Assembly (NCBI GenBank): GCA_964356695.1
Contig: CAYHIZ010000001.1
Span: forward strand, 1-56,609
Direction of reading: 5' to 3'
From: an uncultured Candidatus Saccharibacteria bacterium
GTDB taxonomy: Bacteria; Patescibacteriota; Minisyncoccia; Phycocordibacterales; UBA2100
Length of the DNA: 56,609 nucleotides
The notes below the pieces were generated by a model that saw only the letters and a list, made by a program, of their open reading frames with translations, searched no databases and was not told where the DNA came from. The translations under genes and the position numbers were made by a program. Positions within the stretch are counted from its first letter, which is position 1. Every line of letters starts with the position of its first letter. Of the stretch, positions 13,220-52,295 are shown piece after piece.

Positions 13220-13220
13220 C

Positions 13221-13310: not shown

Positions 13311-13314
13311 AGTT

Positions 13315-14004: not shown

Positions 14005-14008
14005 AATT

Positions 14009-14557: not shown

Positions 14558-14559
14558 AA

Positions 14560-15327: not shown

Positions 15328-15343
15328 AGATCGGTGTGAGGGC

Positions 15344-15368
15344 AAAATAGGCATTTTATGCCTATTTT
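15344..15368. terminator. Perfect 11-3-11 palindrome, candidate bidirectional intrinsic terminator
   Basis: AAAATAGGCAT-TTT-ATGCCTATTTT. The A-run and T-run flank a GGCAT/ATGCC core. It lies between the 3-gene operon and the ATPase gene. Confidence 0.45.
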
Positions 15369-15468
15369 ACTCAATTATCCACAAACTATTGTGGAAATCA
15401 TTGCAATTTAATCTATTATCTGCTAGGATACGGTAGGTCGAGATAATAAGCGTAAAACCTATAAAAAT

Positions 15469-16677: not shown

Positions 16678-16679
16678 CA

Positions 16680-17783: not shown

Positions 17784-17843
17784 TTTTCACAATACTTGTG
17801 GATTCGTGGTTGCATGGTTTTCAGTACATGCGACAATGTACGT

Positions 17844-18977: not shown

Positions 18978-19001
18978 TCAATCGTAGAGCATGCGACACT
19001 C

Positions 19002-26848: not shown

Positions 26849-26864
26849 AATAACTCGTCATTCC

Positions 26865-27698: not shown

Positions 27699-28643
27699 AA
27701 GCGTAACTCGAAAAAGAGAATTGCCATACGATGCAACGGGCACACTCGGATTCATTGTCTTATCCGTACCCCATGAGACGGCGTCCACGACAGCGCCGGA
27801 GGCATTCCGCAAAACAACGCGATCTCCTCCGTTTGAAAGCCCATCTCCGATGGAACTGTCAAGCGAAACAAACTGAGTTTCGGGGGGAATATTCCAAAGA
27901 GAACGCGTTGTAGGCATGGCGGAAATTACCACGAAACGACCGGGCGCGATCATTGTGCCGTTTGGTATTACATCAGACGCAATGGCATCTTCTATTTTCC
28001 ACCCGCCGATATTTACAGTCGCCGTAGTGCCATTGAAAATCTCGATCCATTCATTCACCGGTTTAGTACCATGTGCCGTGTCTACCGCATAATAAACCTC
28101 ACTGATGATTAATTTAGCAAGGGTTCCGATAGGAGGAATTGGCGGAGGATTGGGGGGTGTAGGGTTTGAAACAGGAGGCGGAGAAGTGGTGGGAGATGGC
28201 GTTGTTGGGTTGGAAGCGGGGGACGGATTAGATATGGAGGAGCGTGCTGGGGGTGATTGAGATGGTTGGGACGGAATACGAGAAGGTGACGATGGGCCGG
28301 TTGTGGGTGGAGCAGCCGGTGCGCCCTGACCGCTTGATCCCATCATGGTTATTGCGATGCCAGTGTAAATAGTTAGCGGAGATATTTTATAAATACAGTA
28401 GTAGGGTGCGCCCGCTAACCCTAACAACCATTGCCCCGCGTTCGCGGGGGGACCGAATTGATACGTGCGCGTTGCGCTCGTCCAAATGTATTCACCTCCG
28501 ACAGGAGGACCCAAATTGACATAGATCGTCGAATTATAAGGACATTGGAGAACGGTGGAGGCACGCCCGCCAAAAGGAAATGCCTGCGCCACAAAGGGCA
28601 CCGCGAGAATGACTCCCAAAACCGCGACGTATCGAGTGTCCAT
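27639..28643 (-). CDS. Secreted protein with Pro/Ser/Thr-rich linker and C-terminal lamin-tail domain (LTD)
   Basis: Signal peptide MDTRYVAVLGVILAVPFVAQA. A PST-rich tract is followed by LIISEVYYAV...NEWIEIFNGT...GGWKIED...GDRVVLRNASGAVVDAVSWG, typical of LTD. The ORF track extends to 28676. Confidence 0.6.
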   Translation of the reverse strand: MDTRYVAVLGVILAVPFVAQAFPFGGRASTVLQCPYNSTIYVNLGPPVGGEYIWTSATRTYQFGPPANAGQWLLGLAGAPYYCIYKISPLTIYTGIAITMMGSSGQGAPAAPPTTGPSSPSRIPSQPSQSPPARSSISNPSPASNPTTPSPTTSPPPVSNPTPPNPPPIPPIGTLAKLIISEVYYAVDTAHGTKPVNEWIEIFNGTTATVNIGGWKIEDAIASDVIPNGTMIAPGRFVVISAMPTTRSLWNIPPETQFVSLDSSIGDGLSNGGDRVVLRNASGAVVDAVSWGTDKTMNPSVPVASYGNSLFRVTLSKDTNTASDWGLRTPSIGR

Positions 28644-28769
28644 CGGCACATAGTACCATTTAAAAACAGTCAACACTGTAGCTCACAAATAATGGTACCG
28701 ACACCCCATAGAATAGAGAACTCGTAATCAGTGGTATGTTTATAGGCACGAGAAAGTGCAGTAACACAT

Positions 28770-34915: not shown

Positions 34916-36082
34916 ATGCAGAAATTGTCCTCAATTCTTGTACTACTGTCATTCCTTTTTATTGGAGGCCAATTTACATCGGGCATCGCCCACGCTCAAG
35001 AGCTTGTGCAGAACGAGATCGAGACCGTCAAAGCGCAGGTACTTGAGATTTTAAGTCAGGAAGTAAAAAATATTCCTGGCACCGAGACGAGTCACGACTA
35101 TCAAAAAATAAAAGTAAAAGTTCTAGAGGGCACACAGAAAGGGCAAGTGCTAACCGTAGACAATGATTATTTGAGTCTCAAAATTGATGAAGTCTTTTAC
35201 CTTAGGCATGAGACGGATGACCTCGACGGGAGAGAAATGTATGCCGTCTCGGAGCCATATCGTCTTCCGGCCATCTATGGGTTCATTGCCCTCTTAGTTC
35301 TCTGTGTTCTCGTATTCGGCGGTTGGCAGGGATTGCGCGGACTCATCGCCCTAGTCGCAAGTTTTCTCTTTATTTTCTACCTGCTCTTCCCCGGCATTCT
35401 GCACGGCTACTCGCCGATCTTAGTGAGTGTCGGGGTTGCCTCGCTCATCATAGTGCTCGGGTCATACATAACGCACGGATTCAACAAGACAACCACCTCA
35501 GCCGTGATCGGCATGATTGTTACCATTCTCTTTACAGGTGGACTTGCATATTACGCGGTTGACGTGACACGTTTGAGCGGCTTCGCTTCCGAGGAATCCG
35601 TGTATCTAAATTTTGACACGAACGGCACGATTGATTTCGTCGGCCTTCTTCTCGGTAGCATTCTTATCGGTTTGCTCGGTGTGCTCTACGACGCGGCGAT
35701 CAGCCAGGCTATTGCGGTTGAGGAATTGCATCGCATTGGACCGCATTTGCCTCGAAGTTTTATTTTCAAGCGTGCACTTCGTATCGGGAGAGAGCATATT
35801 GGCGCACTCGTGAACACGCTGGCAATCGCGTATGTTGGTGCGTCGCTCCCGCTCCTTTTGCTTTTTTATTCGACCACCGATTCTAGCTTTTCACTTAACC
35901 TTAACCGAGAATTATTTGCTACTGAAGTCATCCGGACCATGATCGGCTCGATCGGCCTCGTGCTGGCTGTGCCGATTACCTCACTCGTTACAGTAATGAT
36001 GCTTATGAAAAAGAAAACCGCCGACCAGAAGGTACTTGAGAAAGAGGAGAGGGCGGTCGAGCATGTAGACCATTTTCACTAA
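34916..36082 (+). CDS. YibE/F-like family membrane protein
   Basis: N-terminal signal plus a soluble domain, followed by about 7 TM helices (..GWQGLRGLIALVASFLFIFYLLFPGILHGY.., YDAAISQAIAVEEL), typical of YibE/F. Confidence 0.7.
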   Translation: MQKLSSILVLLSFLFIGGQFTSGIAHAQELVQNEIETVKAQVLEILSQEVKNIPGTETSHDYQKIKVKVLEGTQKGQVLTVDNDYLSLKIDEVFYLRHETDDLDGREMYAVSEPYRLPAIYGFIALLVLCVLVFGGWQGLRGLIALVASFLFIFYLLFPGILHGYSPILVSVGVASLIIVLGSYITHGFNKTTTSAVIGMIVTILFTGGLAYYAVDVTRLSGFASEESVYLNFDTNGTIDFVGLLLGSILIGLLGVLYDAAISQAIAVEELHRIGPHLPRSFIFKRALRIGREHIGALVNTLAIAYVGASLPLLLLFYSTTDSSFSLNLNRELFATEVIRTMIGSIGLVLAVPITSLVTVMMLMKKKTADQKVLEKEERAVEHVDHFH

Positions 36083-36185: not shown

Positions 36186-37031
36186 ATGGCAGAACGCGCA
36201 GAAGCAAGCGTGGATTTTTTTCGCATGGCAACATTCGCCTCTATTTCAGTACTCGCACTTGTGATAGTGGGCGTTTGGCAAATGCATCAGTTTTTTTTAA
36301 GAGGAAATACGGTAAGCGCAAAAAATACCAAACATTCGTCTCTTAGCGAACGGACTTCGACCCCATACGGGAATATCGATTGGCAAGCCCCTATCCATAA
36401 TTCATCAAACGAATTGGATTCATCTTCATCCGCAAACGCTTCGGAGGACAAAGATGGAATCTCGAACATAGAAGGAAATGTCGCTCGAGTACTTATAGAC
36501 TCTTATACGGCACTGAACGAAGCGGGTATATACACAAAAAAGGATGGCGAGAAGATCGCGAAAGATATTGCAATTTCCCTGCGGGCAAACATTTCGTACA
36601 AAATTTACTCTATCAGCGACATAAAAACCGACCCAAACGCCTCATACGATCGCATGCTCGCGTATCGCGGTGATTTACGCAAAGCTCTTGAGCCTCTACT
36701 TGGAAATCCGGGATATGAACTAAAGCTTTTCGCCAATTACATAGGATCGAATGATCCGATATATACGGAAAAACTTGCAGTAACGTCCAAAAATTATCAA
36801 AAAGCGGTCGCGCAAGCTGCCAACATAACCGTTCCGGAAGACGCAGTACAAGAACATCTTGGAATTCTGAATGCGCTCTCGGAATTCGGAACTATAGTGG
36901 AAAAAATGGCGATCCATGCAGATGATGCGTTCGCCGCGGCCGCACTCCTGCAAACATACAACACGGGAGAAGCCAACCTGTTGACTTCATTCAATTCTCT
37001 GGCTACATATTATCGCTCAAAAAAGATATGA
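36186..37031 (+). CDS. Hypothetical N-terminally anchored protein (first gene of the T4SS-like operon)
   Basis: Single TM (FASISVLALVIVGVW) plus a helical soluble domain. The stop overlaps the next start (ATGA at 37028-37031). Confidence 0.5.
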   Translation: MAERAEASVDFFRMATFASISVLALVIVGVWQMHQFFLRGNTVSAKNTKHSSLSERTSTPYGNIDWQAPIHNSSNELDSSSSANASEDKDGISNIEGNVARVLIDSYTALNEAGIYTKKDGEKIAKDIAISLRANISYKIYSISDIKTDPNASYDRMLAYRGDLRKALEPLLGNPGYELKLFANYIGSNDPIYTEKLAVTSKNYQKAVAQAANITVPEDAVQEHLGILNALSEFGTIVEKMAIHADDAFAAAALLQTYNTGEANLLTSFNSLATYYRSKKI

Positions 37032-38668
37032 AATTGAGATCAACTTCAATTTGGCGGATGGCGGTAACCGGATTTGCATTACTGGCATGCATGCCTATTT
37101 TTGCGAGCGCCGCCCACATAGCTGGACACACAGTAACCCCGACAGCCCCTCCGGATGACTCGACCACGGAACAATACGAATTCAGTCAAGAGGGCATATT
37201 CGGTTGCAATCAGACCGCCGGTGCAGGTGCCAGCGCCGGAACACTAGCCGCAATAGGTGGTACATATGTACCGGTTAACGACGCGGCTGTCACTTTGAAC
37301 ACCGGCATCCTAGTTTACAAAGAATGCGTACTGCGACCATTGCAAGATCGGCTTCGAGAAAGCGCAACCTCTGCACTTTTAAAGAAACAATACATCGGCA
37401 TAGAAACGGGGCGCGAGGGCAATAAACGCTACGTGGTTAATATTCCCGACGATTTGGAGCCCATAGAAGACCGGGCCGCGCTTACATATTTGCAAAGCCC
37501 TTTCAAAACCGTACACCCGCTATATCGAGATAAAATCCCGCGCGCACTTGCCATAAACTACAGGGCCGAGACAAGGGGCTCCGAAGAGCAAGAGTGCGGA
37601 TACAAAGGCGATCTTGCTATGGCGACACAGAATCCGACAGAAAATGAATTCAGTTTTGAAAATTTCGCAGAATTGAGAGATCCGGCTTGTAATTTATTCT
37701 TCGCATACATGGAGAAAAAAGATGCAATGGATGCCGTGAGAGCCGAGGCAATAGCCAACCAAAAAACTATTTGGGATTGGGGCAGAGGATTCTATGCTGT
37801 AACCGACAACGATCAAGACCCGTTTAAAGAAAAGATCCTGACACCGTCATCCGTTGTCCAGGAATCATTCCAGCAAATTCTGGGAAGCCCCGTGCGACAA
37901 CTCGAAAGCGCAAACGATATAGGACAAATGATAGGCGCTCTGTTTGCAAGCGTTACCACACAGGCGCTTACAGATAGCCAAGGGCTCGCCGGACTTGGAC
38001 GAAGCATAGGGGGAGGGACGCCATATATCGATCAAGTTTCTAGAGACTCTTCGCAAGGAGTAATAGACGCCGCCGTGAATGCGGCCATAACCATTTTGAA
38101 TGCGGCCAAACAAGTGGAGGGAAGATTCTTGGCTGTGATGAATTCGATCGCAGAAAATCTAACACAAACGATCAACGCTATTCGTGGCATAGAACGCCAA
38201 TGCTGGGCACTTGTCGTTCCAAAGGTGAAGGAGTATGCCGGTCAAAACGGCATCACGCTCGACCCCGCAAAAATCAGCAGATCTACAAGTACCCTTGCAT
38301 TCTCGCAACAAGTTATTGATTCCCAAATCACACCTCTCGCAGAGGCGGCGCTCGAAAACGTAGAGTCCGCGCAAAAAGCTGTCAGCCTAATCGATAGACT
38401 CATCGCAGGCGTGACGAATACCAACTCGGTTGCGGCACAGCGTCTGGCGCTTCAACAACTCGATACGCTCGTCGCAGGGGGGTCGCTCCACTCGCAATAC
38501 GACGTGGCGAACGCCACGACACAAGTCGAAGACATACGCTCCGCCATGGATACACTACGCACAGACACAGCGGAAGCATGGGGCGACTCGCCCGATCCGA
38601 GCATAGGCTGGTGCAACATCCAAAATCCTACAGTAATCCGGCTCTGGGCAGAGCGGTGGAAGAGATAG
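37028..38668 (+). CDS. Hypothetical secreted protein (546 aa) of the T4SS-like operon
   Basis: Signal peptide (MAVTGFALLACMPIFASAAH). No recognised domain. Confidence 0.5.
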   Translation: MKLRSTSIWRMAVTGFALLACMPIFASAAHIAGHTVTPTAPPDDSTTEQYEFSQEGIFGCNQTAGAGASAGTLAAIGGTYVPVNDAAVTLNTGILVYKECVLRPLQDRLRESATSALLKKQYIGIETGREGNKRYVVNIPDDLEPIEDRAALTYLQSPFKTVHPLYRDKIPRALAINYRAETRGSEEQECGYKGDLAMATQNPTENEFSFENFAELRDPACNLFFAYMEKKDAMDAVRAEAIANQKTIWDWGRGFYAVTDNDQDPFKEKILTPSSVVQESFQQILGSPVRQLESANDIGQMIGALFASVTTQALTDSQGLAGLGRSIGGGTPYIDQVSRDSSQGVIDAAVNAAITILNAAKQVEGRFLAVMNSIAENLTQTINAIRGIERQCWALVVPKVKEYAGQNGITLDPAKISRSTSTLAFSQQVIDSQITPLAEAALENVESAQKAVSLIDRLIAGVTNTNSVAAQRLALQQLDTLVAGGSLHSQYDVANATTQVEDIRSAMDTLRTDTAEAWGDSPDPSIGWCNIQNPTVIRLWAERWKR

Positions 38669-38674
38669 ATTTAT

Positions 38675-41164
38675 ATGGAAAAAACAAATCTTAGGCGTCA
38701 AGTTTCTCATATCGCACTGACACTGATGCTAGTCACGGCGGGCGCTGTTCTTGTCCCAGAAGTATCTCTAGCGCAGAACAATACGGGTCCTACAGCTGGA
38801 TCGGGAATTGGATTTGGAGAACAAAAATGTCCTGCCGGCTCGACTCCGAGAAAACAGAACTATACTGTCGTTTATGAATGCATTGATGATAAAAGCGGAG
38901 AAATAATAGGCACGATCAATGTTTTAGGATACGAACCGGCGAACATGTCGTGTGGCGGTACATGGAACAGCCTGACAGCCCCTATGAGGTGTTGGACGCG
39001 CGCGATATTCGCCGGAGTGGGAAGGTTCCTTATATGGCTCGGCGTCGAGTTTGCAACGATTGCGGGAATGATATTTGAAACCGTGCTGACATACACTATC
39101 GTAGAGTTTGGAAAGTATCTTGGTCTAATTAAAGATGGGATAGACACGGGATGGACCGCCCTGCGCGATATAGCCAATATCTTAATCATCGGCATGTTCG
39201 TCTTCATTGCCATCAGCATCATTCTGGGTGTCAAAGAGTTTGGCGACCAGAAAAAAGTTGCGCACGTGTTGATAGTTGCAGTCCTCATCAACTTCAGCCT
39301 GCTCTTCACCAAGATAATAGTAGACGCCTCCAATTTTACCGCATATCAATTTTATAATCAGATGGTAAAAGGAATAAGAGAGAATGCAAATCAAACGGCG
39401 ACAACAGTCGAAGACACGGAATCTGCAACACCGGCAACGCCTAAAGTTAGTGGTATTGCGGGGAAGTTCATGAAGCTTCTCGGTGCTGAAGGTTTTATCG
39501 GAAACGACTACGCCAAACTGCGCAAAATCGCAGAAGCTAACAACGATGCATCTACTGCGCTCGGGTATGGACTGATTTCTTTCATATTTCTCATCGCCGT
39601 CAGTCTTGTGCTTCTGTACGGAACTTTTCTCATTCTCTCCCGCGCCGTAATGATAGTATTCCTAATGCTCACATCCGCCGTCGCATTTGCAACTTGGCTC
39701 ATTCCTTCCCAACACGTCCAACCCATGTTTTCACAATGGTGGGAATCGCTCCTCAAGACCGCCTTTTTTGCACCCATACTTATGGCACTATTGTGGATTA
39801 CTATCGTAGTCGCAGAGTCCCTGGGCGAAGCACTGAAAAAGCTAGCACCCGACGGACAGATTGGCGTACTCGGCGCCCTCGCTACCGACCCGTCAAACAA
39901 AATACACATTCTTGCGCTTCTCAACTTTGTACTTGTTCTCGGCCTACTATACGCCGCGTTTGCGGTATCCAGCGCATTTTCAAAAATCATTCCAGGATTC
40001 CGATCTGCACAAACAGGTTTGCGGACTGGCGTTGGCGTAGCGGCACTTACGGCACTCGCGGGTCCGTCCCGCCTTCTGGGACTAGCCGGGAGAACGTGGA
40101 TCGGTGGCAACGCATCTGCATATAGAGAGGGTCTTGCAAACAAACTAACAAAAGAGGGTAGAATGCCAACCCTATTGGAACGCGCAGGGCTGAGGGCTGC
40201 CACAAGTCTCGGTAACTCTTCCTTTGATGCATTAAGTACAAAACCCGCGCAAACGGCCACCAAGGCGATTCTTGGCTCGACCCTCGGTGGCATGTATGGC
40301 GGTAACGTAGGGCAAGGTGGCTATAACGCAAGCATGAAGCGAATCGCGGAAGAGTCGCTCAAGAACGCGCGTGCATCAGGCTTCAAAAGCGAAGGGGAGG
40401 TCAAGGAGATACACGGAGAAAAAGCCGACGCAGACCAAAAGCCGAAACGAGATGCCCTTAAGTCTGATGAAGAAGTTCACAAGAAAAACCTTGTCGAGGC
40501 CGAGCATGCAAGGAAGCCTGCGGAAACTGAGAAAAAGATTGCGCTTGACAAGGTTCGAGCGGAAGCAGGGGAGGCGCCGTTTGCCAAGATGGAAAATGAT
40601 CTTAAAGCCGCCGGTATGAGTAAAGCTACCGCTGAAGCCGAGCGGAACACTCAAAGACAACGCATCGCCATGGCGGCTTCGATAAGCGACGCGGAGCAAA
40701 GAGCGCAAGTTGAGCGGGACGCAAGAGAGCAAGAGGCCAGATCCATCGAACAAATAGCTCGCCTTGATAAAGAGATCGAGGGAATAACAGGAGGTCTCGA
40801 CAGATTCAACAAAGAAATCAAAGAGGCTGGAGACACGGCGGTTGAAGGGAGAAAACAAGTCGCGAACGCGATGCTTAAACAAATCGGTGATGAACACAGA
40901 AGGCTTGATGAAGAAAAAAGAGATCAGGTACAATCTGCGGCTAATTCCGTAAGCGATAAAGCTGTTGCGCGCACATCAGCCCACACGCGGCTTGGAACGC
41001 TGTATGGAATTCTCGGTTCCGTTGATAATGATCCTGCATCCAAGAGAATCGGCGGTGCCGCAAAAGAGCTTGACGGTCGACAACTGGCGAACTGGCTCAG
41101 GGACGGTGCGAAAGGTGCTGGTGTAAACTTCGAATCCCCGCCATCGGGCGGAACTAAAAAATAG
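38675..41164 (+). CDS. Polytopic membrane protein, VirB6/TrbL-like candidate, with long charged coiled-coil C-terminus
   Basis: Signal plus a Cys-containing ectodomain. At least 7 predicted TM helices lie between about aa 110 and 430. The K/E/A-rich C-terminal tail is about 300 aa. Its position is upstream of the PrgI/VirB4 genes. Confidence 0.5.
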   Translation: MEKTNLRRQVSHIALTLMLVTAGAVLVPEVSLAQNNTGPTAGSGIGFGEQKCPAGSTPRKQNYTVVYECIDDKSGEIIGTINVLGYEPANMSCGGTWNSLTAPMRCWTRAIFAGVGRFLIWLGVEFATIAGMIFETVLTYTIVEFGKYLGLIKDGIDTGWTALRDIANILIIGMFVFIAISIILGVKEFGDQKKVAHVLIVAVLINFSLLFTKIIVDASNFTAYQFYNQMVKGIRENANQTATTVEDTESATPATPKVSGIAGKFMKLLGAEGFIGNDYAKLRKIAEANNDASTALGYGLISFIFLIAVSLVLLYGTFLILSRAVMIVFLMLTSAVAFATWLIPSQHVQPMFSQWWESLLKTAFFAPILMALLWITIVVAESLGEALKKLAPDGQIGVLGALATDPSNKIHILALLNFVLVLGLLYAAFAVSSAFSKIIPGFRSAQTGLRTGVGVAALTALAGPSRLLGLAGRTWIGGNASAYREGLANKLTKEGRMPTLLERAGLRAATSLGNSSFDALSTKPAQTATKAILGSTLGGMYGGNVGQGGYNASMKRIAEESLKNARASGFKSEGEVKEIHGEKADADQKPKRDALKSDEEVHKKNLVEAEHARKPAETEKKIALDKVRAEAGEAPFAKMENDLKAAGMSKATAEAERNTQRQRIAMAASISDAEQRAQVERDAREQEARSIEQIARLDKEIEGITGGLDRFNKEIKEAGDTAVEGRKQVANAMLKQIGDEHRRLDEEKRDQVQSAANSVSDKAVARTSAHTRLGTLYGILGSVDNDPASKRIGGAAKELDGRQLANWLRDGAKGAGVNFESPPSGGTKK

Positions 41165-41167
41165 AGT

Positions 41168-41743
41168 ATGGACGACACACTAAAAAAAGACATTCTAACG
41201 CGCCTAGGCCAGCTTCCTAAGGTGGTACAAGAAGCGATTACTTCTGCAGACATCGAGAAACGCTTGCAAGAACTGGCGAATACAAATAAGCTTTATCTTG
41301 ATCAGTGGGAGAAACTTGAAAAAGAAGTGATGCTTACTCTGCTTGGATTCAAAAGTCCGGCTGATTTGGAGGAGGGCATAAAAAAAGAGGTGGGGGTAGA
41401 TGCTCAAGCGGCCGCAGTACTCACGGATGAAATTTCGCGTATCGTATTTGAGCCGATCCGGCAGGAATTAGAGCGCGAGCTTGAACATCCAGAGGCGAAA
41501 GCAAAAGAGATGAGCGGAGTGGAAACAGCGCGCGAACAAACGCTGAGTAGTGGTGTAGAGAACACGGACAACAGCGACCAGAAAACAATAGAAGTTAGTA
41601 CAATTACACCGGCAACTCCGTCCCAATCTGCGCCGACAGAAAAGGCGATTCGCATGCCCACATCCGGCGCATATGTGCCCGGAGAAACATCCATCGCACG
41701 CAAAGACGTTCACGATGATCCGTACAGAGAACCCCCTGCCTGA
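41168..41743 (+). CDS. Hypothetical acidic protein of the T4SS-like operon
   Basis: 191 aa, acidic, helical N-terminal half and a disordered-looking C-terminal half. No motif recognised. Confidence 0.45.
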   Translation: MDDTLKKDILTRLGQLPKVVQEAITSADIEKRLQELANTNKLYLDQWEKLEKEVMLTLLGFKSPADLEEGIKKEVGVDAQAAAVLTDEISRIVFEPIRQELERELEHPEAKAKEMSGVETAREQTLSSGVENTDNSDQKTIEVSTITPATPSQSAPTEKAIRMPTSGAYVPGETSIARKDVHDDPYREPPA

Positions 41744-41785
41744 ATAATGCGACGATTCAGCGAGAAATACTGATATAATTCAGCC

Positions 41786-42268
41786 ATGCAATTCCAGGTG
41801 CCTCAATTTATAGAAGTGGAGGACAAAATTTTCGGACCACTTACATTCAAACAATTCATATACATAACCGGAGGCGCGGGGGCGTCGTATCTCATATATC
41901 GCGTATTGCCGATTTATCTTTCAGGACCACTGATCCTGGGAATTGGCGGCCTCGCCGCGGCGCTTGCGTTTATACAGTGGAACGGCCGTCCATTTATCCT
42001 TGGGATGGAAAATGCTTTTTATTTTCTAATACGCTCCAAGCTATATCTTTGGAACAACGCAAGCAAGAAGCCGATACAGAAAACCGCAAGCTCGGACATG
42101 AAGGCTGTTTCGGAAGTATATATCCCGAAGTTATCGGATAGTAAATTGCATGAACTAGCGTGGAGCCTGGACATCAAAGAGAGAATCGCGGCGGGAGTTG
42201 CCGGCGAGCGAGAGCGTGGTGGCGGAATAATACGATCAGTGCGAACCGCACGCGAAGCAAGAATCTAA
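41786..42268 (+). CDS. PrgI-family (VirB3-like) membrane protein
   Basis: MQFQVPQFIEVEDKIFGPLTFKQFIYITGG followed by two TM helices. This is the characteristic PrgI-family N-terminus, and the gene is positioned upstream of VirB4. Confidence 0.7.
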   Translation: MQFQVPQFIEVEDKIFGPLTFKQFIYITGGAGASYLIYRVLPIYLSGPLILGIGGLAAALAFIQWNGRPFILGMENAFYFLIRSKLYLWNNASKKPIQKTASSDMKAVSEVYIPKLSDSKLHELAWSLDIKERIAAGVAGERERGGGIIRSVRTAREARI

Positions 42269-42274
42269 CGTACC

Positions 42275-42958
42275 ATGCCCAACAAACAAACAACAATACG
42301 ATCCGGAACGAAATCGACGCAAGAATTCGTGCCCGTATCAGAGGTGCGCGATGGCGTCATTGTTCTCAAGGGTGGCGGACTGCGTGCCGTTCTTCTCGCA
42401 TCCTCGCTTAACTTCGCGCTAAAATCCGAAGATGAGCAAACTGCATTCATCGTACAATTTCAAAACTTCCTCAATTCACTCGATTTCAGCGTGCAAATAT
42501 TCGTACAATCGCGCATGCTGGATATTCGACCATACATTGCAACCCTTGAAGTAGCTTACAAAGAACAACTCGACGATCTTATGCGCATCCAAATACGAGA
42601 GTACATAGAATTCATCAAAAGTTTTACAGAGGCCGCCAACATCATGACAAAAAACTTTTTTGTAGCTGTTCCGTATTCGCCAACCATCGCTCCGATTGCA
42701 GGGGGAAGCTCCACGTCTATGCTTCCGTGGAAACGCGCGAAGAAAAATTCCGCGGAAGCCAACCGCACCTTCGAAGAGCAAGTGTCCCAACTTGAGCAAC
42801 GCATATCAATCGTACAGCAAGGATTGATACGCACGGGCGTACGAACGGTTCAGCTCGGCACGGAAGAGGCCGTTGAACTTTTATACAAGATGTTTAACCC
42901 TGGAGAGGAAGGAAAACCGATTCCCGCTTCCGCCATAGGAGGACAGTCGTCAAGATAA
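42275..42958 (+). CDS. Hypothetical protein resembling a stand-alone VirB4 N-terminal domain
   Basis: FVPVSEVRDGVIVLKGGGLRAVLLASSLNFALKSEDEQTAFIVQFQNFLNSLDFSVQIFVQS follows the pattern seen at the N-terminus of Gram-positive VirB4/TraE-like ATPases. It has no Walker motifs. Confidence 0.4.
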   Translation: MPNKQTTIRSGTKSTQEFVPVSEVRDGVIVLKGGGLRAVLLASSLNFALKSEDEQTAFIVQFQNFLNSLDFSVQIFVQSRMLDIRPYIATLEVAYKEQLDDLMRIQIREYIEFIKSFTEAANIMTKNFFVAVPYSPTIAPIAGGSSTSMLPWKRAKKNSAEANRTFEEQVSQLEQRISIVQQGLIRTGVRTVQLGTEEAVELLYKMFNPGEEGKPIPASAIGGQSSR

Positions 42959-42961
42959 AAT

Positions 42962-44917
42962 ATGAACATCAAAGATTTTTTTTCACTGGGAAAGAAGCAG
43001 TCCGCGACGCATGTACTGCCTGTACTGCCCGAAGAGATTTACCAGACGGGAGTTTTGAATCTTCAAGACGTAATCGCGCCACACGCACTCAAGGTCAATT
43101 CCCGAGAGCTTGATCTCGGAGAGAGAATAGCGCGAACCTTTTTTGTAATCTCATACCCTCGTTTTCTTACTACGGGCTGGTTTGCTCCCATCATCAACAT
43201 GGACAAAGTGATCGACATATCCATCTTCGTACATCCCATGGATACCAACGAGATGTTGCGCAAATTCCAAAAAAAAGTTGCGGAAGTGCAAAGCCAGATA
43301 TCGACACGCGAAGAGAAGGGAATGGTCCGCGATCCGATACTCGATACTGCATATCAAGATCTTGAAAAATTGAGAGACTCGCTCCAACAGGCGCAGGAGA
43401 GAATATTCGAAGTCGGCCTGTATCTCACAATTTACGGAAACACGCGAGAAGAAATCGACAAAACCGAAAGCGAGGTTCGTTCCATTTTGGAATCGCGACT
43501 TGTGTATATTCGACCCGCGCTTTTTCAGCAAGAACAGGGATTCCGTTCGGTTTTACCGCTTGCAACAGACGAGCTTGACGTACACACCAAGCTCAACTCA
43601 GCACCGCTCTCTTCCATATTTCCTTTTATTTCTTTCGACCTCACGTCGGATCGGGGGATTCTTTATGGCATCAACCGTCATAACTCCTCTTTGATTTTGT
43701 TCGATAGATTTTCTTTGGAAAATTACAACTCGGTTACTTTCGCAAAATCGGGCGCGGGCAAATCATACTTGACCAAATTGGAAATATTGCGCTCGCTGAT
43801 GTTCAGCACAGAAGTGATCGTCATCGACCCCGAGCGCGAGTATGAGTATTTGGCGGAAACGGTCGGTGGCCGCTATTTCAATATCTCGCTTTCCTCAGAA
43901 CACCACATAAATCCTTTTGATCTTCCGATCCCGCGCGAAGATGAAAATCCTTCCGACGTATTGCGCAGTAACATCATTACTCTTGTCGGTCTTTTTCGCA
44001 TCATGCTCGGGGGACTCACGCCGGAGGAAGACGCCATTATAGACAAGGCGATTACCGAGACATACGCCCTGAAAGACATTTCGGCCGATGCGAATTTCGC
44101 CGCCATCGAACCTCCGCTTCTATCCGATTTCGAACTCGTGCTTTCCGGCATGGAAGGCTCAGACTCGCTTATTACGCGACTTTCCAAGTACACGAAAGGC
44201 ACGTGGTCGGGATTCATGAACCGCCCTACGAACGTCGACATGAATAAAAAACTCGTGGTCTTTTCCGTGCGCGACATGGAAGACGACCTGAAGCCGGCCG
44301 CGATGTACATCATTACGCATCACATTTGGAATACTGTGAGAAAAGAGCTACGCAGACGACTCCTTGTCATAGACGAGGCGTGGTGGATGATGCGTAGTGA
44401 AGACACAGCATCGTTCCTCTTTGGCATTGCGAAACGTGGCCGCAAATACTTCCTCGGCATTTCAACCATAACGCAAGACGTCTCCGACTTCTTGAACTCT
44501 CCGTACGGAATCCCCATGATTACCAACTCTTCCATACAGCTTCTTCTGCGTCAATCGCCGACATCCGTCGATCTTGTACAGCAAACTTTCAAATTATCGG
44601 ATGAAGAAAAGTATCTTCTGCTCGAATCCGATGTGGGGGAGGGGATATTCTTTGCGGGCTTGAAACACGTGGCCATTAAAGTGATCGCCTCTTATACTGA
44701 AGACCAAATAATAACTTCCGACCCCTCGCAGATTCTCGCAATCCGAAAGGCGAAGCAGGATCTCTCAAGCGCATCCATGCCTGCAGGACAATTACCCGGA
44801 GACACGCCTGCAGGTATTCCGCAAGCGCCCACACCGTCTCCGTCCAATAGCGCGGCGCTTCGACTGAAAGATGCCCTCTCGCGAGATGAGGCGCAAGGAT
44901 CGAAAATATCCGTATGA
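42962..44917 (+). CDS. virB4: VirB4/TraE-like type IV secretion ATPase
   Basis: N-terminal IAPHALKV..LDLGERIARTFFVISYPRFLTTGWFAPII, Walker A FAKSGAGKSYLTK, Walker B LLVIDEAWWMM, and TITQDVSDF. Confidence 0.85.
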   Translation: MNIKDFFSLGKKQSATHVLPVLPEEIYQTGVLNLQDVIAPHALKVNSRELDLGERIARTFFVISYPRFLTTGWFAPIINMDKVIDISIFVHPMDTNEMLRKFQKKVAEVQSQISTREEKGMVRDPILDTAYQDLEKLRDSLQQAQERIFEVGLYLTIYGNTREEIDKTESEVRSILESRLVYIRPALFQQEQGFRSVLPLATDELDVHTKLNSAPLSSIFPFISFDLTSDRGILYGINRHNSSLILFDRFSLENYNSVTFAKSGAGKSYLTKLEILRSLMFSTEVIVIDPEREYEYLAETVGGRYFNISLSSEHHINPFDLPIPREDENPSDVLRSNIITLVGLFRIMLGGLTPEEDAIIDKAITETYALKDISADANFAAIEPPLLSDFELVLSGMEGSDSLITRLSKYTKGTWSGFMNRPTNVDMNKKLVVFSVRDMEDDLKPAAMYIITHHIWNTVRKELRRRLLVIDEAWWMMRSEDTASFLFGIAKRGRKYFLGISTITQDVSDFLNSPYGIPMITNSSIQLLLRQSPTSVDLVQQTFKLSDEEKYLLLESDVGEGIFFAGLKHVAIKVIASYTEDQIITSDPSQILAIRKAKQDLSSASMPAGQLPGDTPAGIPQAPTPSPSNSAALRLKDALSRDEAQGSKISV

Positions 44918-45990
44918 ACCGGCCGACAAACAAGATATTTTTTTTCATTGCCATTTGCGCGGTAACTGTCTCTGCAATCCCGACATACTTACCTCACTTG
45001 GTTTCGGCGCAAACTGGCGCACTATTCGGAAGATTCGATAACGATTTGAGGCTTGAGATGTCACCCCTTCACCCGCGTCCAGGGGAAAGCGTGCGCATCA
45101 GCGCACACTCAGCTAGTATAGATCTCCCCCTAACGTCCCTAGAATGGATCGAGAACGGCAAGAAGATCGGCGGGGGAGTGAGCGTCGCCGATATAGAAAT
45201 AAAAGCCGGAGTATTAGGCACTGAAACAACCGTAACTGTGATTATGTTCGAGAACGGCATCGAGCGCGTAAGGAAGAGCGTGCGCATAAACCCAACAGAA
45301 CTTGACCTTCTCTGGGAATCCGACTCATATGTGCCACCGTTTTTCCGCGGCCGAGCCCTTCCATCGGCGGGGACCAATCTTTATCTCCAAGCAATTCCGC
45401 GATTCAAACGCACCAACGGATCTTTAGTTCCCGTGAGCGATATAGTTTTCACATGGCGCAGGAACGACTATGTTCTGCAAAAAATATCCGGTCGCGGGGC
45501 GGGGAGAGCGGTTTTAGGAGGCCCGTCATTTTTAGGTACCGATACGATAAGTGTCCATGCACGCTCGTTGGATGGTCTATTCGAGACCGAAGAGATTGTC
45601 CGCATACCATCGGTCGAGCCGCGCCTTGTTCTTTACGAGAACCATCCACTAGCCGGAGTCATGTACCATAATGCAATCCTCTCGCAAAACCTGCAAAACT
45701 ACCGAGGAGAAGTAGAAATGTCTCTAGTTGCCATACCGTATTTTGCCGAAGCGCAAATGGATGACGACAACTCTTTAATCTATAAATGGAAGGTGAACGG
45801 CAATGCAATCACGAACAATCCTGAACGGCCAAATTCCATAACCATCAATGCGAGCGGGTCGAGCGGATTGGCTTTCGTTGAACTGGCACTATCGCATGCA
45901 ACCAATCTATTTCTAAATTCTTTCGGTTCGTGGAGCATGACGCTTTCTTCAGAAAGACTCGTAAACGACCCGTTCACAAATACACAATGA
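44914..45990 (+). CDS. Hypothetical N-terminally anchored protein of the T4SS-like operon
   Basis: The start overlaps the VirB4 stop (ATGA). It has a TM/signal (IFFFIAICAVTVSAI) and a beta-rich ectodomain. Confidence 0.5.
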   Translation: MNRPTNKIFFFIAICAVTVSAIPTYLPHLVSAQTGALFGRFDNDLRLEMSPLHPRPGESVRISAHSASIDLPLTSLEWIENGKKIGGGVSVADIEIKAGVLGTETTVTVIMFENGIERVRKSVRINPTELDLLWESDSYVPPFFRGRALPSAGTNLYLQAIPRFKRTNGSLVPVSDIVFTWRRNDYVLQKISGRGAGRAVLGGPSFLGTDTISVHARSLDGLFETEEIVRIPSVEPRLVLYENHPLAGVMYHNAILSQNLQNYRGEVEMSLVAIPYFAEAQMDDDNSLIYKWKVNGNAITNNPERPNSITINASGSSGLAFVELALSHATNLFLNSFGSWSMTLSSERLVNDPFTNTQ

Positions 45991-47252
45991 CAAGTATGAA
46001 AACTTCTTCCGCGTTTCGTTATACACTCCTTGTAATCATCGCGCTTATTTTAATCGCGCTCGGTTTTTGGTATTTCTTTATACAGGCCAGGCAAGAAAAA
46101 ATTGCTAAAGAAGATGCTGGTCGCGGACTGGGAAGCGAACCGCCGTCTTTCGGAAGCACTGTAGGTAATACATACGAAAATATAGTATCAAGTTTATCGA
46201 CTCCGGTCGGCGGGAAAAGCGAGCGTTCGGATGGAGCGCTACCGCGACTCGCTCAAGTGGGGAAAACGCCGACGGCCGGTTTAGGTTTTATCGGTAACGC
46301 GCTCTCTACACAAAAAAGCAGTTCGACCTCGACCATGCTCCGTTTTATGGAGCGCTCGACCGGATATATTTTTGACGTTGACCTCAAAACAGGGGTAGTT
46401 GAACGCCTCACCAACACGCTTATTCCTTACGTCTATGAGGCGATAGCCAGCAAGAGGGGAATAATCGTGCGAAGTGTTAGTGAAACAGGCGCCATAATTA
46501 CCGCAGTGGGAACAATCTCCGCAAGCTCCACGTCTGATGTAAAGGAACGCACACTCATACAAAACCCCCTGCCAAGCGGGATACGCGCCATTTTCAGAAG
46601 CCTAGCGGGCGATGATCTGCTTTACATCAAGCGCGAAAAAGGCGAGGCCGTCGGGTTCCGTGCGGCATGGGACGGAACAAAACCGCAAAAACTTTTTTCT
46701 TCCAACGTATCGGACTGGCAAATGCACTTGGCGTCAAACGGTCGCGTAATCATAGTGCAAAGATCGTCTGACGGCATTGCGGGAAGTGCGTATATTGTGG
46801 GAAATGGCGATACGCTAATCCCCCTAATCAGAAATGTCCCTGGACTAACACTACTGCCACACCCTTCATCTTCTGCGTTTCTGTACGGAAGCTCAAGCGG
46901 GGGCCTGGCACTATTCGCGCAGGTCGACGAAAAATCGACAAGCGTCGCCCTACCAATCAAAACCATTGCGGATAAATGCGTGTGGAGTCGCAATGAGAAA
47001 ACGATTGCTTACTGCGCGGTACCGGAAGGGAAGCCCTCCGTTAACTTTCTAGACAGGTGGCATCGCGGGGAAGAGCACACCTCAGACGCATGGTGGCGCG
47101 TAGACGCGAAAGATGCCTCTGCGGAGATATTATCCCCGCCGGGCAACGTCCCATTTGATGTCGAGAACCCTATAATTGACGATGGAGGTAATTACATCGC
47201 GTTTACTAACGCACGCGACAAGGCACTTTGGCTTTTGCGTATAAAAGAATAA
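45987..47252 (+). CDS. Hypothetical N-terminally anchored protein (beta-rich, possibly propeller-like) of the T4SS-like operon
   Basis: The ATG at 45987 overlaps the upstream stop (ATGA). It has a TM (YTLLVIIALILIALGFWYFF). The ORF track starts at 45930. Confidence 0.5.
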   Translation: MTSMKTSSAFRYTLLVIIALILIALGFWYFFIQARQEKIAKEDAGRGLGSEPPSFGSTVGNTYENIVSSLSTPVGGKSERSDGALPRLAQVGKTPTAGLGFIGNALSTQKSSSTSTMLRFMERSTGYIFDVDLKTGVVERLTNTLIPYVYEAIASKRGIIVRSVSETGAIITAVGTISASSTSDVKERTLIQNPLPSGIRAIFRSLAGDDLLYIKREKGEAVGFRAAWDGTKPQKLFSSNVSDWQMHLASNGRVIIVQRSSDGIAGSAYIVGNGDTLIPLIRNVPGLTLLPHPSSSAFLYGSSSGGLALFAQVDEKSTSVALPIKTIADKCVWSRNEKTIAYCAVPEGKPSVNFLDRWHRGEEHTSDAWWRVDAKDASAEILSPPGNVPFDVENPIIDDGGNYIAFTNARDKALWLLRIKE

Positions 47253-47254
47253 AT

Positions 47255-47761
47255 ATGCCGTTTCTACTTAAAAAAAGACGAGTCTTTCTGCTAACGATTA
47301 TCGTGACACTCGGTTTTTCAGGAATCTTCCTCACAAGCACGCGTGTTGCATTTGCCCAATGCGCAAGTGCCGATGGAAAATTCATCGCGCTAGAATGTTT
47401 CAAGGACTCTACAAAACTTAGAGACGCCTATAACACCCCGCCGGGGGAACTGGGACCGTTCCTCAATAAGATATTCGTTGGCGCAATATCAATAGGCGCG
47501 ATCCTCGCCGTTCTGCGTCTCGCATGGGCTGGTTTCCAGTATGTGGCGAGTGATTTATGGAGTACAAAAGAACATGCAAAAGAAATTATACGGGAAACTT
47601 TGCTTGGTCTCTTTCTACTTATCGCAGTTTATCTAATCCTAAGACAAATAAACCCGCAAATACTGGAACTTAAAGTGACCGCGGAGAGGGGATCGACCGA
47701 ACAGACAACGGCGCCCGCCACAGACACCAAATCCGTATTTGAACGAATGCGACGCCTATGA
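47255..47761 (+). CDS. T4SS pilin-like protein (TrbC/VirB2-like topology)
   Basis: Signal peptide ending AFAQ, a Cys pair, then two hydrophobic helices separated by a short charged loop (FVGAISIGAILAVLRLAWAGFQYVAS..KEHAKEIIRETLLGLFLLIAVYLIL). It is the last gene of the operon. Confidence 0.5.
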   Translation: MPFLLKKRRVFLLTIIVTLGFSGIFLTSTRVAFAQCASADGKFIALECFKDSTKLRDAYNTPPGELGPFLNKIFVGAISIGAILAVLRLAWAGFQYVASDLWSTKEHAKEIIRETLLGLFLLIAVYLILRQINPQILELKVTAERGSTEQTTAPATDTKSVFERMRRL

Positions 47762-48513: not shown

Positions 48514-48783
48514 ATGACCATCGCCACAGTCAGGATGCAAGCGCGCGGGGTACTGACTCTCCCGAAGAAGATACGGACCCGCATGGGAATCGCCACTGGC
48601 GACATCGTCGAGCTCGCGGAGCGCGACGGCAAGATATTTTTCGCGCCCGTCTCGCGCATCGACGCGCAGTTGCGTGAGGATGTCCGCAAAGCGCTCGAGG
48701 ATATCCGGCTCGGTCGGACGATTGGCCCATTTGCGAGCATGGCGGATTTCCAGCGGTATAGGAAGTTGAGAAGCAAACGATAA
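48514..48783 (+). CDS. AbrB/MazE/SpoVT-family antitoxin
   Basis: MTIATVRMQARGVLTLPKKIRTRMGIATGDIVELAERDGKIFFAP is a SpoVT-AbrB swapped-hairpin motif. The ORF track embeds it in a longer spurious ORF (48181-48783). Confidence 0.75.
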   Translation: MTIATVRMQARGVLTLPKKIRTRMGIATGDIVELAERDGKIFFAPVSRIDAQLREDVRKALEDIRLGRTIGPFASMADFQRYRKLRSKR

Positions 48784-48795
48784 ACGCTCCACGGT

Positions 48796-49041
48796 ATGCG
48801 CTTCGAGTTCTCAGTGCAGGCGTATGGTTGCTACGAATTATTGCCAACGGAATTGAGACGCGCGACGGATAAGCAGATCCGTTTTCTCGTGAACGACATC
48901 CGCCATCCCTCTCTTCACGCCAAGAAGTACGATGAATCCATAGGATTGTGGCAGGCGCGCATCAACCGCTCATGGCGGTTCTATTTTCTCATCGCGCACG
49001 ACGCGTACTACATCGTGAGCATCCGCAAACATCCGAAGTGA
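48796..49041 (+). CDS. RelE/ParE-superfamily toxin
   Basis: 81 aa. ...HPSLHAKKYDESIGLWQARINRSWRFYFLIAHDAYYIVSIRKHPK follows the RelE/ParE pattern (K..g....w.aRi....R..f.i......il.i..H). It starts 12 nt after the antitoxin stop. Confidence 0.65.
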   Translation: MRFEFSVQAYGCYELLPTELRRATDKQIRFLVNDIRHPSLHAKKYDESIGLWQARINRSWRFYFLIAHDAYYIVSIRKHPK

Positions 49042-50589: not shown

Positions 50590-50609
50590 ATATCCACAGA
50601 TTATCCACA
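50590..50609 (+). promoter_or_regulatory. Two tandem DnaA boxes upstream of dnaA
   Basis: ATATCCACA (50590-50598, 1 mismatch) and TTATCCACA (50601-50609, perfect), spaced 2 nt apart. Confidence 0.7.
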
Positions 50610-50710: not shown

Positions 50711-52063
50711 ATGACTAACCACGAACTCTGGCAAAATGCACTTGTTCAAATCGAGCTGGGCACCTCGGAGGCAAGTTTTCGCACGTGGTTTAAAAACACC
50801 GACGTAGCAGGGCGCAATGGGGAAACAGTCCAAGTCGCAGTACCTTCCAAAATAGTTAAAGAGTGGCTTTTGGAAAAACATCACAAACTAATAATGAGCG
50901 CACTCCGGAGTATGGATCCGGCGGTTCGCGCCATCGAATTTGTGGTGCACCGAGTAATATCTTCTCCAATCGAAATCAGAAAATCCGGGCGGACACAGTC
51001 AGTCGACAATGTTTCAATGGACCTCGACAATCTCTACATAGACAGGCGAGACAATTTAAACCCTCGTTACACGTTTGAAACATTCGTGGTCGGTCCCTTC
51101 AACCAGCTCGCCCATGCCGCCTCCAAGGCCGTAATTGATAAGCCGGGACTTGCTTATAATCCGCTTTTCATCTACGGCGCAACAGGACGCGGTAAAACAC
51201 ACCTCATACAGGCGATTGGCAATCACTTCAAGAAAACACATGCGAACAAAAGAGTATTGTATGTTACCTCAGAACGTTTCGCGGTTGATTACATCAACGC
51301 AGTCCGAGCCGGTCGCGCCAATGGCTTCAAGGATCAATACCGCGCGAACGATGTGCTAATCATGGACGACGTGCAATTCATCGCCAACACCGAAAAAACA
51401 CAGGAGGAGTTATTCCATTTATTCAACGCACTGCACGATAGCAATAAGCAAATAGTTTTTTCCTCCGATAAGCACCCACTATTGCTCGGGGGCTTCGAGG
51501 ACAGAATCAAGGGTCGTTTCTCCGCAGGAATGATTGCAGAAATTCCCGAGCCGGATATTGAATCCAGGGTGGCAATCATAAGAGCCAAACTGGAAAGCCA
51601 CGGCTTTTCGGTTCCCGACGACATCATCCAACACATTGCCGAAAGCGTTCATGGCAACATACGCGAAATCGAGGGAATACTCAATATGATTGTTTGTAAG
51701 TCCCAACTCAAAGGAAAAGGTGTTTCCCTGTCAGACGTACGAACACTCATAAAACACAACATCAAGCCGAATAAAGGCATATCTCCTGATGAGGTTGTGC
51801 GCCGTATAGCCGGATACTATGAAATCCCCGAGAAAAGCATCTACGAAAAAACCCGAAAGAGGGAAGTGGTAAAACCAAGGCAAATAATTATGTATATTCT
51901 TCGTGAAGAATTTAACGCCTCATATCCATTAATCGGAGAGAAGCTTGGTGGTCGCGATCACACAACAGTAATTCACTCTTGCGAGAAGATAAAGGAAGAG
52001 ATGAAATCCAGCCCTTCACTGGAGCAAGAGATCGACCACATACGCATGCTAATTCACGCATAA
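50711..52063 (+). CDS. dnaA: Chromosomal replication initiator protein DnaA
   Basis: LNPRYTFETFVVG, Walker A GATGRGKTHL, VLIMDDVQF, and C-terminal DNA-binding domain ..LGGRDHTTVIHSCEKI. Confidence 0.95.
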   Translation: MTNHELWQNALVQIELGTSEASFRTWFKNTDVAGRNGETVQVAVPSKIVKEWLLEKHHKLIMSALRSMDPAVRAIEFVVHRVISSPIEIRKSGRTQSVDNVSMDLDNLYIDRRDNLNPRYTFETFVVGPFNQLAHAASKAVIDKPGLAYNPLFIYGATGRGKTHLIQAIGNHFKKTHANKRVLYVTSERFAVDYINAVRAGRANGFKDQYRANDVLIMDDVQFIANTEKTQEELFHLFNALHDSNKQIVFSSDKHPLLLGGFEDRIKGRFSAGMIAEIPEPDIESRVAIIRAKLESHGFSVPDDIIQHIAESVHGNIREIEGILNMIVCKSQLKGKGVSLSDVRTLIKHNIKPNKGISPDEVVRRIAGYYEIPEKSIYEKTRKREVVKPRQIIMYILREEFNASYPLIGEKLGGRDHTTVIHSCEKIKEEMKSSPSLEQEIDHIRMLIHA

Positions 52064-52295
52064 TCTTTGTATAACACTGTGGATAATGTATGTGTAGTAT
52101 ATGAAAATAACCTTAACTGCTTTTTAGAAAAAAATAAAAAAACTTATCAACACCGATATACCCATAAGTATTACAACTTTTCCACATAATCACATCCTAA
52201 AAATATCGCGACATCACTCACTTCCAAACACTTCTCCACATCATGCACACCATTATTAATAATAGTAGTTTTAATATCTAATTCTTTCTTAATAT
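52064..52295. other. Candidate oriC (dnaA-dnaN intergenic region)
   Basis: Perfect DnaA box TGTGGATAA at 52078-52086 (reverse orientation). One-mismatch boxes TTTTCCACA (52178-52186) and TTCTCCACA (52232-52240). Very AT-rich tracts at about 52100-52145 and 52250-52295 are candidate DUEs. Confidence 0.6.

Follow-up and report, generated by a model that had tools for sequence, protein, structure and literature searches.

Introduction

What kind of machine is encoded by the block of same-strand genes at positions 36186-47761 of contig CAYHIZ010000001.1 (assembly GCA_964356695.1), and does it belong to the chromosome or to a mobile element? The contig, deposited as that of an uncultured Candidatus Saccharibacteria bacterium, was analysed over its full length of 56,609 nucleotides, which we refer to as the window. 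A preliminary description, made from the sequence alone, had read the block as an eleven-gene operon for a chromosomal type IV secretion system (T4SS)-like apparatus in a candidate phyla radiation (CPR) cell, whose seven orphan components would be the undescribed, lineage-specific part of the machine. We report here that the block is very probably the form that the chromosomal, origin-proximal T4SS of Patescibacteria takes in Paceibacteria (here Kaiserbacteria-like), a system derived from the conjugation machinery of monoderm bacteria (mating-pair formation type MPF-FATA). A T4SS of this type has already been described, and the window holds a typical member of it, with nothing categorically new.

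Of the systems newly added to the T4SS superfamily, that of Patescibacteria is regarded as one of the most intriguing: its core is of Gram-positive type, its pilins are VirB2-like, and no T4SS before it had been shown to be essential to the cell that carries it (PMC12857230). VirB4 was found in 2,417 of 3,035 Patescibacteria genomes, and these proteins are monophyletic, their clade falling within MPF-FATA (Quinonero-Coronel et al. 2025, Microb Genom, PMC12102498). In the same survey TrsD was the most frequent partner of virB4, with PrgI/VirB3, VirB6 and VirB2-like pilins also encoded nearby and VirB8 and VirB1 rarely detectable, and the Paceibacteria cluster was located close to dnaA, dnaN, rnpA, ksgA and rpmH (PMC12102498). 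By transposon sequencing, SEML1_0006-0019 were found to be essential for epibiotic growth of S. epibionticum, in whose cluster pilins are present while a relaxase and a type IV coupling protein (T4CP) are missing (Wang et al. 2023, Cell, PMC10633639). The composition, the lack of a relaxase, the pilins, TrsD and the proximity to the origin are thus all published, for Saccharimonadia (PMC10633639) and across the phylum (PMC12102498), and the idea of an undescribed machine had to be given up.

Results

A VirB4 motor that appears to be split between two genes

Genes of the block are numbered g01 to g10 in their order on the plus strand (Table 1). Relatives were drawn from a survey of gene order and conservation in the best 80 of more than 556 VirB4-matching loci in species-representative genomes, each examined as the locus with 10 kb of flank on either side. 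All 80 are from metagenome-assembled genomes of Patescibacteria, labelled Kaiserbacteria, Nomurabacteria, Parcubacteria or Paceibacterota, with many bearing the database label 'Saccharibacteria'.

The ATPase of the block, g07, scored 360.5 bits against the NCBIfam model conju_CD1110 (cut-off 325), with the match running over model positions 185-733 of 752. Pfam returned P-loop_TraG (3.2e-23), and the PDB matches included 4ag5 (9.6e-41), whose chain bears the name 'type IV secretory pathway VirB4 components-like protein', as well as TrwK (5e-9). The Walker A (GAGKS) and Walker B (VIDEAWW) motifs that had been read from the sequence were located at residues 264 and 469, respectively. We see 74-92% identity between g07 and its counterparts in the 80 Patescibacteria species genomes, whereas identity to plasmid VirB4 proteins, compared across 3,003 plasmid records, is at most 37%. 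The best plasmid matches are all from monoderm bacteria (Streptomyces, Embleya, Pontibacillus, Clostridium and Bacillus). These values place the protein with the Patescibacteria VirB4 clade, percentage identity serving here as a proxy for a tree.

The gene immediately upstream, g06, matched the NCBIfam models VirB4_plasma (positions 91-233, E 4e-10) and TrsD/TraD (E 1e-5) as well as positions 4-115 of CD1110, and its precomputed Pfam assignment is PF26593, TraC-like. When the profile of its orthologues was aligned with an unsplit 797-aa CD1110 VirB4 using hhalign, residues 21-199 were matched with a probability of 91.9% (E 6.8e-7); a PDB profile search with the same protein gave nothing usable. 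Because g07 covers only part of the full-length model and g06 aligns to the VirB4 N-terminus, VirB4 is, as judged from these alignments, split in two, with TrsD (g06) and the C-terminal part (g07) together tiling the full-length model. TrsD adjoins virB4 in 78 of the 80 loci, with a median identity of 61%.

Two further core components were identified above curated cut-offs, as was VirB4. The PrgI-family protein g05 matched PF12666 (E 1.1e-9, 39.1 bits, cut-off 27), has a transmembrane (TM) region at residues 40-65, and is found in 77 of the 80 loci at a median identity of 50%. The terminal gene, g10, encodes a protein that matched PF18895, T4SS_pilin (E 3.8e-7, 30.5 bits, cut-off 26.6). Hydrophobic stretches lie at 8-33, 66-94 and 110-137; the protein has two hydrophobic helices besides its signal peptide, and a segment that contains Cys. 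Pilin homologues were detected in 59 of the 80 loci, and the more distant loci place them between g08 and g09, which suggests that pilin genes may have been rearranged or fused within Paceibacteria. In loci L022, L025 and L027, as in many distant ones, the best pilin homologue lies between the genes for the Ig-repeat and propeller proteins and not after the propeller gene. Open reading frames (ORFs) at the pilin position in distant loci are often much longer, up to approximately 490 aa, and automated start choice may over-extend them.

The fourth protein that had been called recognisable, g03, has a signal-like N-terminus and approximately six TM segments, and ends in a tail of approximately 290 aa in which 36% of residues are charged. 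It was taken for a VirB6-like protein in the preliminary description, which named a failure of both the VirB6 and the pilin assignments in profile searches as grounds for rejecting its reading. The pilin passes its Pfam cut-off; g03 itself stays below threshold, and its orthologues match the TrbL family. Nine of 45 syntenic orthologues match PF04610 TrbL/VirB6 (best E 6.5e-7), and the orthologue in locus L055 covers positions 3-190 of the 215 in the TrbL profile (18.2 bits). The gene also lies directly upstream of the PrgI-VirB4 group, a position shared with the conjugative cluster of pCDC3875. We therefore label g03 VirB6/TrbL-like through its orthologues only, a call that is weaker than those for the other core components.

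The block is embedded in the core genome beside the putative origin

Upstream of the block lie genes for methionyl- and arginyl-tRNA synthetases, NusG, L11, KsgA (26805-27698), RecG, a ZnuABC-type transporter, Fur and YibE/F. Downstream are jag, a small MazE-like pair, yidC, rnpA, rpmH, dnaA, dnaN, a class A penicillin-binding protein gene and ruvC. For at least 36 kb on the upstream side and 9 kb on the downstream side, the block is flanked by housekeeping genes, and the window is core genome. The GC content of the block (0.47-0.51) is within the range of the window, in line with the core-genome-like composition noted earlier.

DnaA boxes are clustered at 50590-50609 (boxes at 50590 and 50601, upstream of dnaA) and at 52078-52240 (in the dnaA-dnaN spacer), and the cumulative GC-skew minimum is at approximately 52 kb. 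Because these DnaA-box clusters and the skew minimum mark a likely position of the replication origin (oriC), the operon is likely to end approximately 4 kb from it. The 11.6-kb operon is to the left of the putative oriC on the plus strand, and would be transcribed towards the origin, head-on to a leftward-moving fork. Between operon and origin, rpmH-rnpA-yidC-jag run in the same direction as the fork, and this layout recurs in approximately 60 relatives. In S. epibionticum, SEML1_0004-0013 likewise point towards dnaA.

The synteny of the block recurs across the 80 species genomes: the order from g03 to g10, followed by jag/yidC and dnaA/dnaN, is conserved, and dnaA is found downstream of the block in 60 of the 80 loci. 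Since the same order occurs beside jag-yidC and dnaA-dnaN in approximately 60 of 80 species, the system appears to have been inherited vertically and not to be mobile. Within the same 60-80 loci (L001-L080, set against window positions 42962-44917 and 50711-52063), median identity is 77% for VirB4, 61% for TrsD, 54% for DnaA, 43% for YidC and 40% for DnaN, with some ascertainment bias in these comparisons from the choice of loci by VirB4 similarity. Identities for VirB4 and TrsD that exceed those for DnaA and DnaN in the same loci indicate that the motor is probably under strong purifying selection.

These observations bear on whether the block could instead be the transfer module of an ordinary integrative and conjugative element (ICE), or a degraded plasmid insertion, with a relaxase, a T4CP and an integrase just beyond the window. 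Such an origin would suit a VirB4 family that is otherwise typical of Firmicutes and Actinobacteria conjugative elements, and conjugative T4CP and relaxase genes can sit far from virB4, while our search covered the window. That search, a Pfam scan of approximately 50 ORFs that included nearly all long, non-nested ORFs of the 56.6 kb and a few short ones, returned no match to relaxase, T4CP, VirB11 or integrase families, as the preliminary description had noted for VirD4/TraG, relaxase, VirB11 and integrase. The long housekeeping flanks, the unexceptional GC content, the shared order beside the origin genes and a VirB4 more conserved than DnaA all argue against an ICE, as does a published survey that found 109 relaxases in 3,035 Patescibacteria genomes, only 15 of them near virB4 (PMC12102498). 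We regard an ICE or plasmid origin as extremely improbable. The view that this CPR cell carries a T4SS-like apparatus on its chromosome is upheld by its core-genome site, by synteny across 80 species, and by the finding of nothing specific to conjugation in 56.6 kb.

Comparison with known systems

The closest likeness is to the T4SS already described from Patescibacteria (PMC12102498; SEML1_0004-0019 in PMC10633639). Shared features are an MPF-FATA-type VirB4 encoded after a separate TrsD; a cluster with PrgI/VirB3, a VirB2-like pilin and, going by the orthologue-based call for g03, a VirB6-like protein, with no relaxase or T4CP nearby; and a chromosomal site beside dnaA, dnaN, rnpA and rpmH, with ksgA within approximately 20 genes. 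In S. epibionticum the core order is VirB6-like (SEML1_0011), PrgI (0010), a TrsD-sized protein (0009) and VirB4 (0008), beside dnaA/dnaN/recF (PMC10633639), and the same succession of VirB6-like protein, PrgI, TrsD and VirB4 is seen here. S. epibionticum differs in having an array of six pilins, compared to the single pilin gene of the window, and a lysozyme/peptidase (VirB1-like) downstream of virB4, where the window block has Ig-repeat and beta-propeller proteins instead. Counterparts of g01, g02 and g04 were not found in the portions of its annotation tables that were examined.

Monoderm MPF-FATA conjugation systems (CTn2/CD1110, C. botulinum pCDC3875, pGO1 Trs and pCF10 Prg/Pcf) resemble the block in several respects. 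The window VirB4 scores above the CD1110 cut-off, the order VirB6/TrbL-like, PrgI, one intervening gene, VirB4 is that of pCDC3875, outer-membrane core components are lacking in both, and TrsD is also encoded separately in pGO1 (PMC12102498). The differences lie in the low VirB4 identity given above and in genomic setting, these conjugative systems being mobile elements whereas the block occupies a fixed chromosomal site at the side of the origin. Unlike the window block, pCDC3875 has an adjoining VirD4-like gene, an SLT hydrolase and a typed MOBP relaxase. Gram-positive systems are described as lacking a VirB2-like pilin (PMC12102498, PMC10633639, PMC12857230), whereas the window block has one.

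Among T4SSs that do not conjugate, Ptl of Bordetella, the VirB system of Brucella and ComB of Helicobacter are diderm MPF-T-type machines with VirB7/9/10, and Ced is archaeal, with CedA/A1/A2. What they share with the block is a non-conjugative T4SS core with no coupling protein or relaxase alongside (PMC12102498, PMC12857230). ComB and Ced raise the possibility that the block is a dedicated DNA-uptake (competence) system, importing environmental or host DNA as a source of nucleotides. Patescibacteria are without nucleotide biosynthesis, there is no relaxase or T4CP nearby, as in ComB, and g07 weakly matches the NCBIfam model of CedB, a DNA importer (E 5.6e-10). At 38.5 bits, where the cut-off is 700, this match stems from the P-loop that both proteins have; likeness of Ced to the window VirB4 is at this level only. 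No CedA or ComB partner families were matched by the block proteins in Pfam or NCBIfam. Moreover, deletion of comEC in S. epibionticum abolishes competence and leaves viability unaffected, while the T4SS is essential, and a FEMS review ascribes competence in this species to type IV pili (PMC12857230). That comEC can be lost without harm while the T4SS is essential speaks against an essential role in DNA uptake. We consider a dedicated uptake system very unlikely, and of the two roles first suggested, DNA uptake or host-cell interaction, it is uptake that is weakened.

Five accessory proteins

The seven orphans of the preliminary description, all held to be signal- or TM-anchored, reduce to five, of which four are predicted to be membrane-anchored or secreted: the 227-aa protein is TrsD, and neither it nor g04 (191 aa) has a predicted signal peptide or TM segment. 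For the remaining five (g01, g02, g04, g08 and g09), searches of Pfam and NCBIfam gave no assignment to a T4SS family. Structures of g01 and g02 were predicted with AlphaFold2 (AF2), and the folds of g08 and g09 are assigned at the profile level only.

A TM segment at residues 9-38 anchors g01, for which the AF2 model has a mean predicted local distance difference test (pLDDT) score of 86.6, rising above 95 for residues 90-281. Comparison of the model with PDB using Foldseek recovered only four-helix-bundle sensor domains, at a target TM-score of 0.6-0.68 and non-significant E values of at least 0.27, and there was no Pfam, NCBIfam or PDB profile match. We considered g01 as an analogue of VirB8 and rejected it: the bitopic topology is right, but the AF2 fold is all-alpha and not NTF2. 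The second protein, g02, has an N-terminal hydrophobic, signal-like segment and an AF2 model (pLDDT 80.2) with helices of up to 74 residues, for which Foldseek found no fold match with E < 0.05 in PDB or BFVD; a PDB profile search likewise gave no match. Its repeated matches to tripartite alpha-pore-forming toxins (AhlC, SmhB) had E values of approximately 1 and were not taken as evidence. Cysteines C60, C100, C190, C392 and C529 are invariant, and C221 is nearly so. We found at least 379 homologues of g02, all unnamed or 'hypothetical' save for one 'fibronectin type III domain protein', and some carry an added fn3 domain. Both g01 and g02 are fast-diverging and detectable in 21-28 of the 80 loci, with g01 found by tblastn in 21 and its similarity detectable in the closest relatives only.

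The g04 protein, presumably cytoplasmic, comprises a conserved helical N-domain and a disordered Pro-rich linker that precedes a C-terminal DPYRE motif at residues 184-188. In an alignment of 39 orthologues, D184, P185, Y186 and E188 are at least 90% conserved. The gene was found in 43 of the 80 loci, and its product has no Pfam or PDB match. The DPYRE tail looks like a short docking peptide.

Downstream of virB4, g08 begins with an N-terminal hydrophobic segment and, in the consensus, contains three repeats with a W-x2-NG motif, of which W78, W181 and W292 are invariant. A PDB profile search matched an immunoglobulin (Ig)-like domain of Hoc (E 4.8e-4), and among 58 orthologues there are weak matches to BiPBP_C (13), Ig_3 (6) and PKD-like domains. 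For g09, with a TM segment at 5-35 and invariant cysteines C331 and C343, the orthologue profile matches twelve TolB chains in PDB (best E 1.8e-4), and three of 57 orthologues match PD40. At the level of fold, then, g08 looks Ig-like and g09 looks like a beta-propeller. The two genes are present in 78 and 71 of the 80 loci, respectively.

Operon layout

Positions 36186-47761 hold ten long plus-strand ORFs, one fewer than had been counted; no eleventh gene was found there, and no gap is long enough to hold one. The lengths of g04 to g10 were reproduced by an independent gene call on a second contig with an identical VirB4. No paralogues of the ten genes were found elsewhere in the window.

Table 1. 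Genes of the T4SS block, with positions in the window and assignments.
Gene	Position	Strand	Length (aa)	Assignment	Family
g01	36186..37031	+	281	TM anchor, Ser-rich linker, predicted extracytoplasmic helical bundle; no family	
g02	37028..38668	+	546	Predicted secreted, elongated all-alpha, Cys-rich; no family	
g03	38675..41164	+	829	VirB6/TrbL-like polytopic membrane protein, call via orthologues	
g04	41168..41743	+	191	Soluble, helical N-domain, Pro-rich linker, DPYRE tail; no family	
g05	41786..42268	+	160	PrgI-family (VirB3-like) membrane protein	PF12666
g06	42275..42958	+	227	TrsD-like, apparently detached VirB4 N-terminal domain	
g07	42962..44917	+	651	VirB4-family ATPase, middle and C-terminal P-loop domains	conju_CD1110
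g08	44914..45990	+	358	N-terminally anchored or secreted, three putative Ig-like repeats; no T4SS family	
g09	45987..47252	+	421	TM-anchored, putative TolB/PD40-like beta-propeller; no T4SS family	
g10	47255..47761	+	168	VirB2-like T4SS pilin	PF18895

On re-measurement, the ATGA overlaps reported at 37028, 44914 and 45987 are exact, as is the range of 2-42 nt for the gaps, the remaining junctions being of 6, 3, 42, 6, 3 and 2 nt. The database gene call starts g02 at Met11 (536 aa), and the overlap at 37028 is then a short gap. Spacing of 2-4 nt is also seen between other same-strand genes of the window, for example at 13315-15270. Such tight spacing is normal in the window and not special to the T4SS block, so that translational coupling of the block genes is no more than plausible. 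A scan for promoters and terminators gave counts no higher than expected from shuffled sequence, which speaks neither for nor against a single transcript. The YibE/F gene (34916-36082) was considered as a member of the operon and rejected: it lies 103 nt upstream and is linked to the block in 0 of the 80 relatives.

Other features of the window

Directly after tRNA-Ile(TAT) is a low-GC islet (0.41-0.44) at 13149-17222. It contains an HNH endonuclease with homing-endonuclease repeats, a histidine phosphatase, an unassigned 236-aa ORF, and a pair formed by an AAA_21 ATPase and an RloB-like protein that resembles an abortive-infection or OLD-type defence pair. The small pair between jag and yidC (48514-49041) consists of a MazE/AbrB-like ORF of 89 aa and an adjoining 81-aa ORF, which may be a toxin-antitoxin pair; it interrupts an otherwise canonical origin-region gene set. 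Encoded at 27639-28676 (minus strand) and 17796-20441 (plus strand) are a Lamin-tail-domain protein and two PG_binding_1 proteins with PKD or Kre9-like Ig domains. These are predicted surface proteins, and may be envelope or host-interaction proteins.

Discussion

From general knowledge of T4SSs, TrsD and VirB4 would form a hexameric motor docked on PrgI and VirB6 in the single membrane. This motor would pull the signal-peptidase-processed pilin from the membrane and polymerise it into a tube or pilus. The proteins g08, g09, g01 and g02 could form or decorate the wall-spanning and distal part of the machine, where they may take over the functions of VirB8 and VirB1, which are missing, or serve in adhesion. 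Literature on relatives points to a role in contact-dependent exchange with a host bacterium and not in conjugation, by way of effector export or the import of host macromolecules.

Several points weigh against the reading of the block as a complete Patescibacteria T4SS with such a role. The CD3337/EF1877 match of g03 is below threshold (E 8e-4), with no Pfam TrbL match; its PDB profile search gave no match to TrwI, and an hhalign comparison of the g03 family with one CD1112 VirB6-like protein found no match, a single-sequence template having low power. No VirB8-like (NTF2) subunit was identified in the block, the AF2 models of g01 and g02 both being all-alpha, and no VirB1-like hydrolase domain was found there. 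The only SLT-domain protein of the window, and so the only VirB1-like candidate, is one of 503 aa at 54-1565, 35 kb from the block. The lack of a relaxase and a coupling protein, which the preliminary description had made part of its reading, holds for the 56.6-kb window. A distal copy is possible, and VirD4-like genes are reported in 2,918 of 3,035 Patescibacteria genomes, mostly distant from virB4 (PMC12102498). Essentiality was shown for a single Saccharimonadia species, S. epibionticum, and not for Paceibacteria. Lastly, the roles proposed for the accessory proteins draw solely on topology, fold class and synteny.

One proposal for the direction and cargo of any exchange with the host is that the system takes in macromolecules of the host cytoplasm, for example RNA, by way of a VirB2-like tube that penetrates the host envelope. 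[quoted passage not shown] The block, for its part, has a pilin and four exported accessory proteins. The preprint itself calls the mechanism of RNA uptake unresolved, and the sequence of the block gives no sign of direction or substrate. We see such a conduit as possible but doubtful. A more specific version, in which the five Paceibacteria-specific proteins are a hitherto uncharacterised extracellular and docking module that makes a host-penetrating conduit out of the monoderm core and VirB2 tube, importing macromolecules such as RNA, seems to us quite unlikely. Were it true, the operon would code for the organelle with which these parasites feed.

Taken as the Paceibacteria version of a known T4SS, the window offers a clean example of Kaiserbacteria-like type, whose setting close to the origin is unambiguous. 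To the published picture it adds a fold-level description of the putative Paceibacteria-specific accessory proteins, an explicit tiling of full-length VirB4 by TrsD and VirB4, and an operon that is apparently transcribed towards the origin. The accessory folds, together with a conservation of VirB4 and TrsD above that of DnaA, could guide complex prediction or the interpretation of cryo-electron tomography data for the machine that these bacteria carry.

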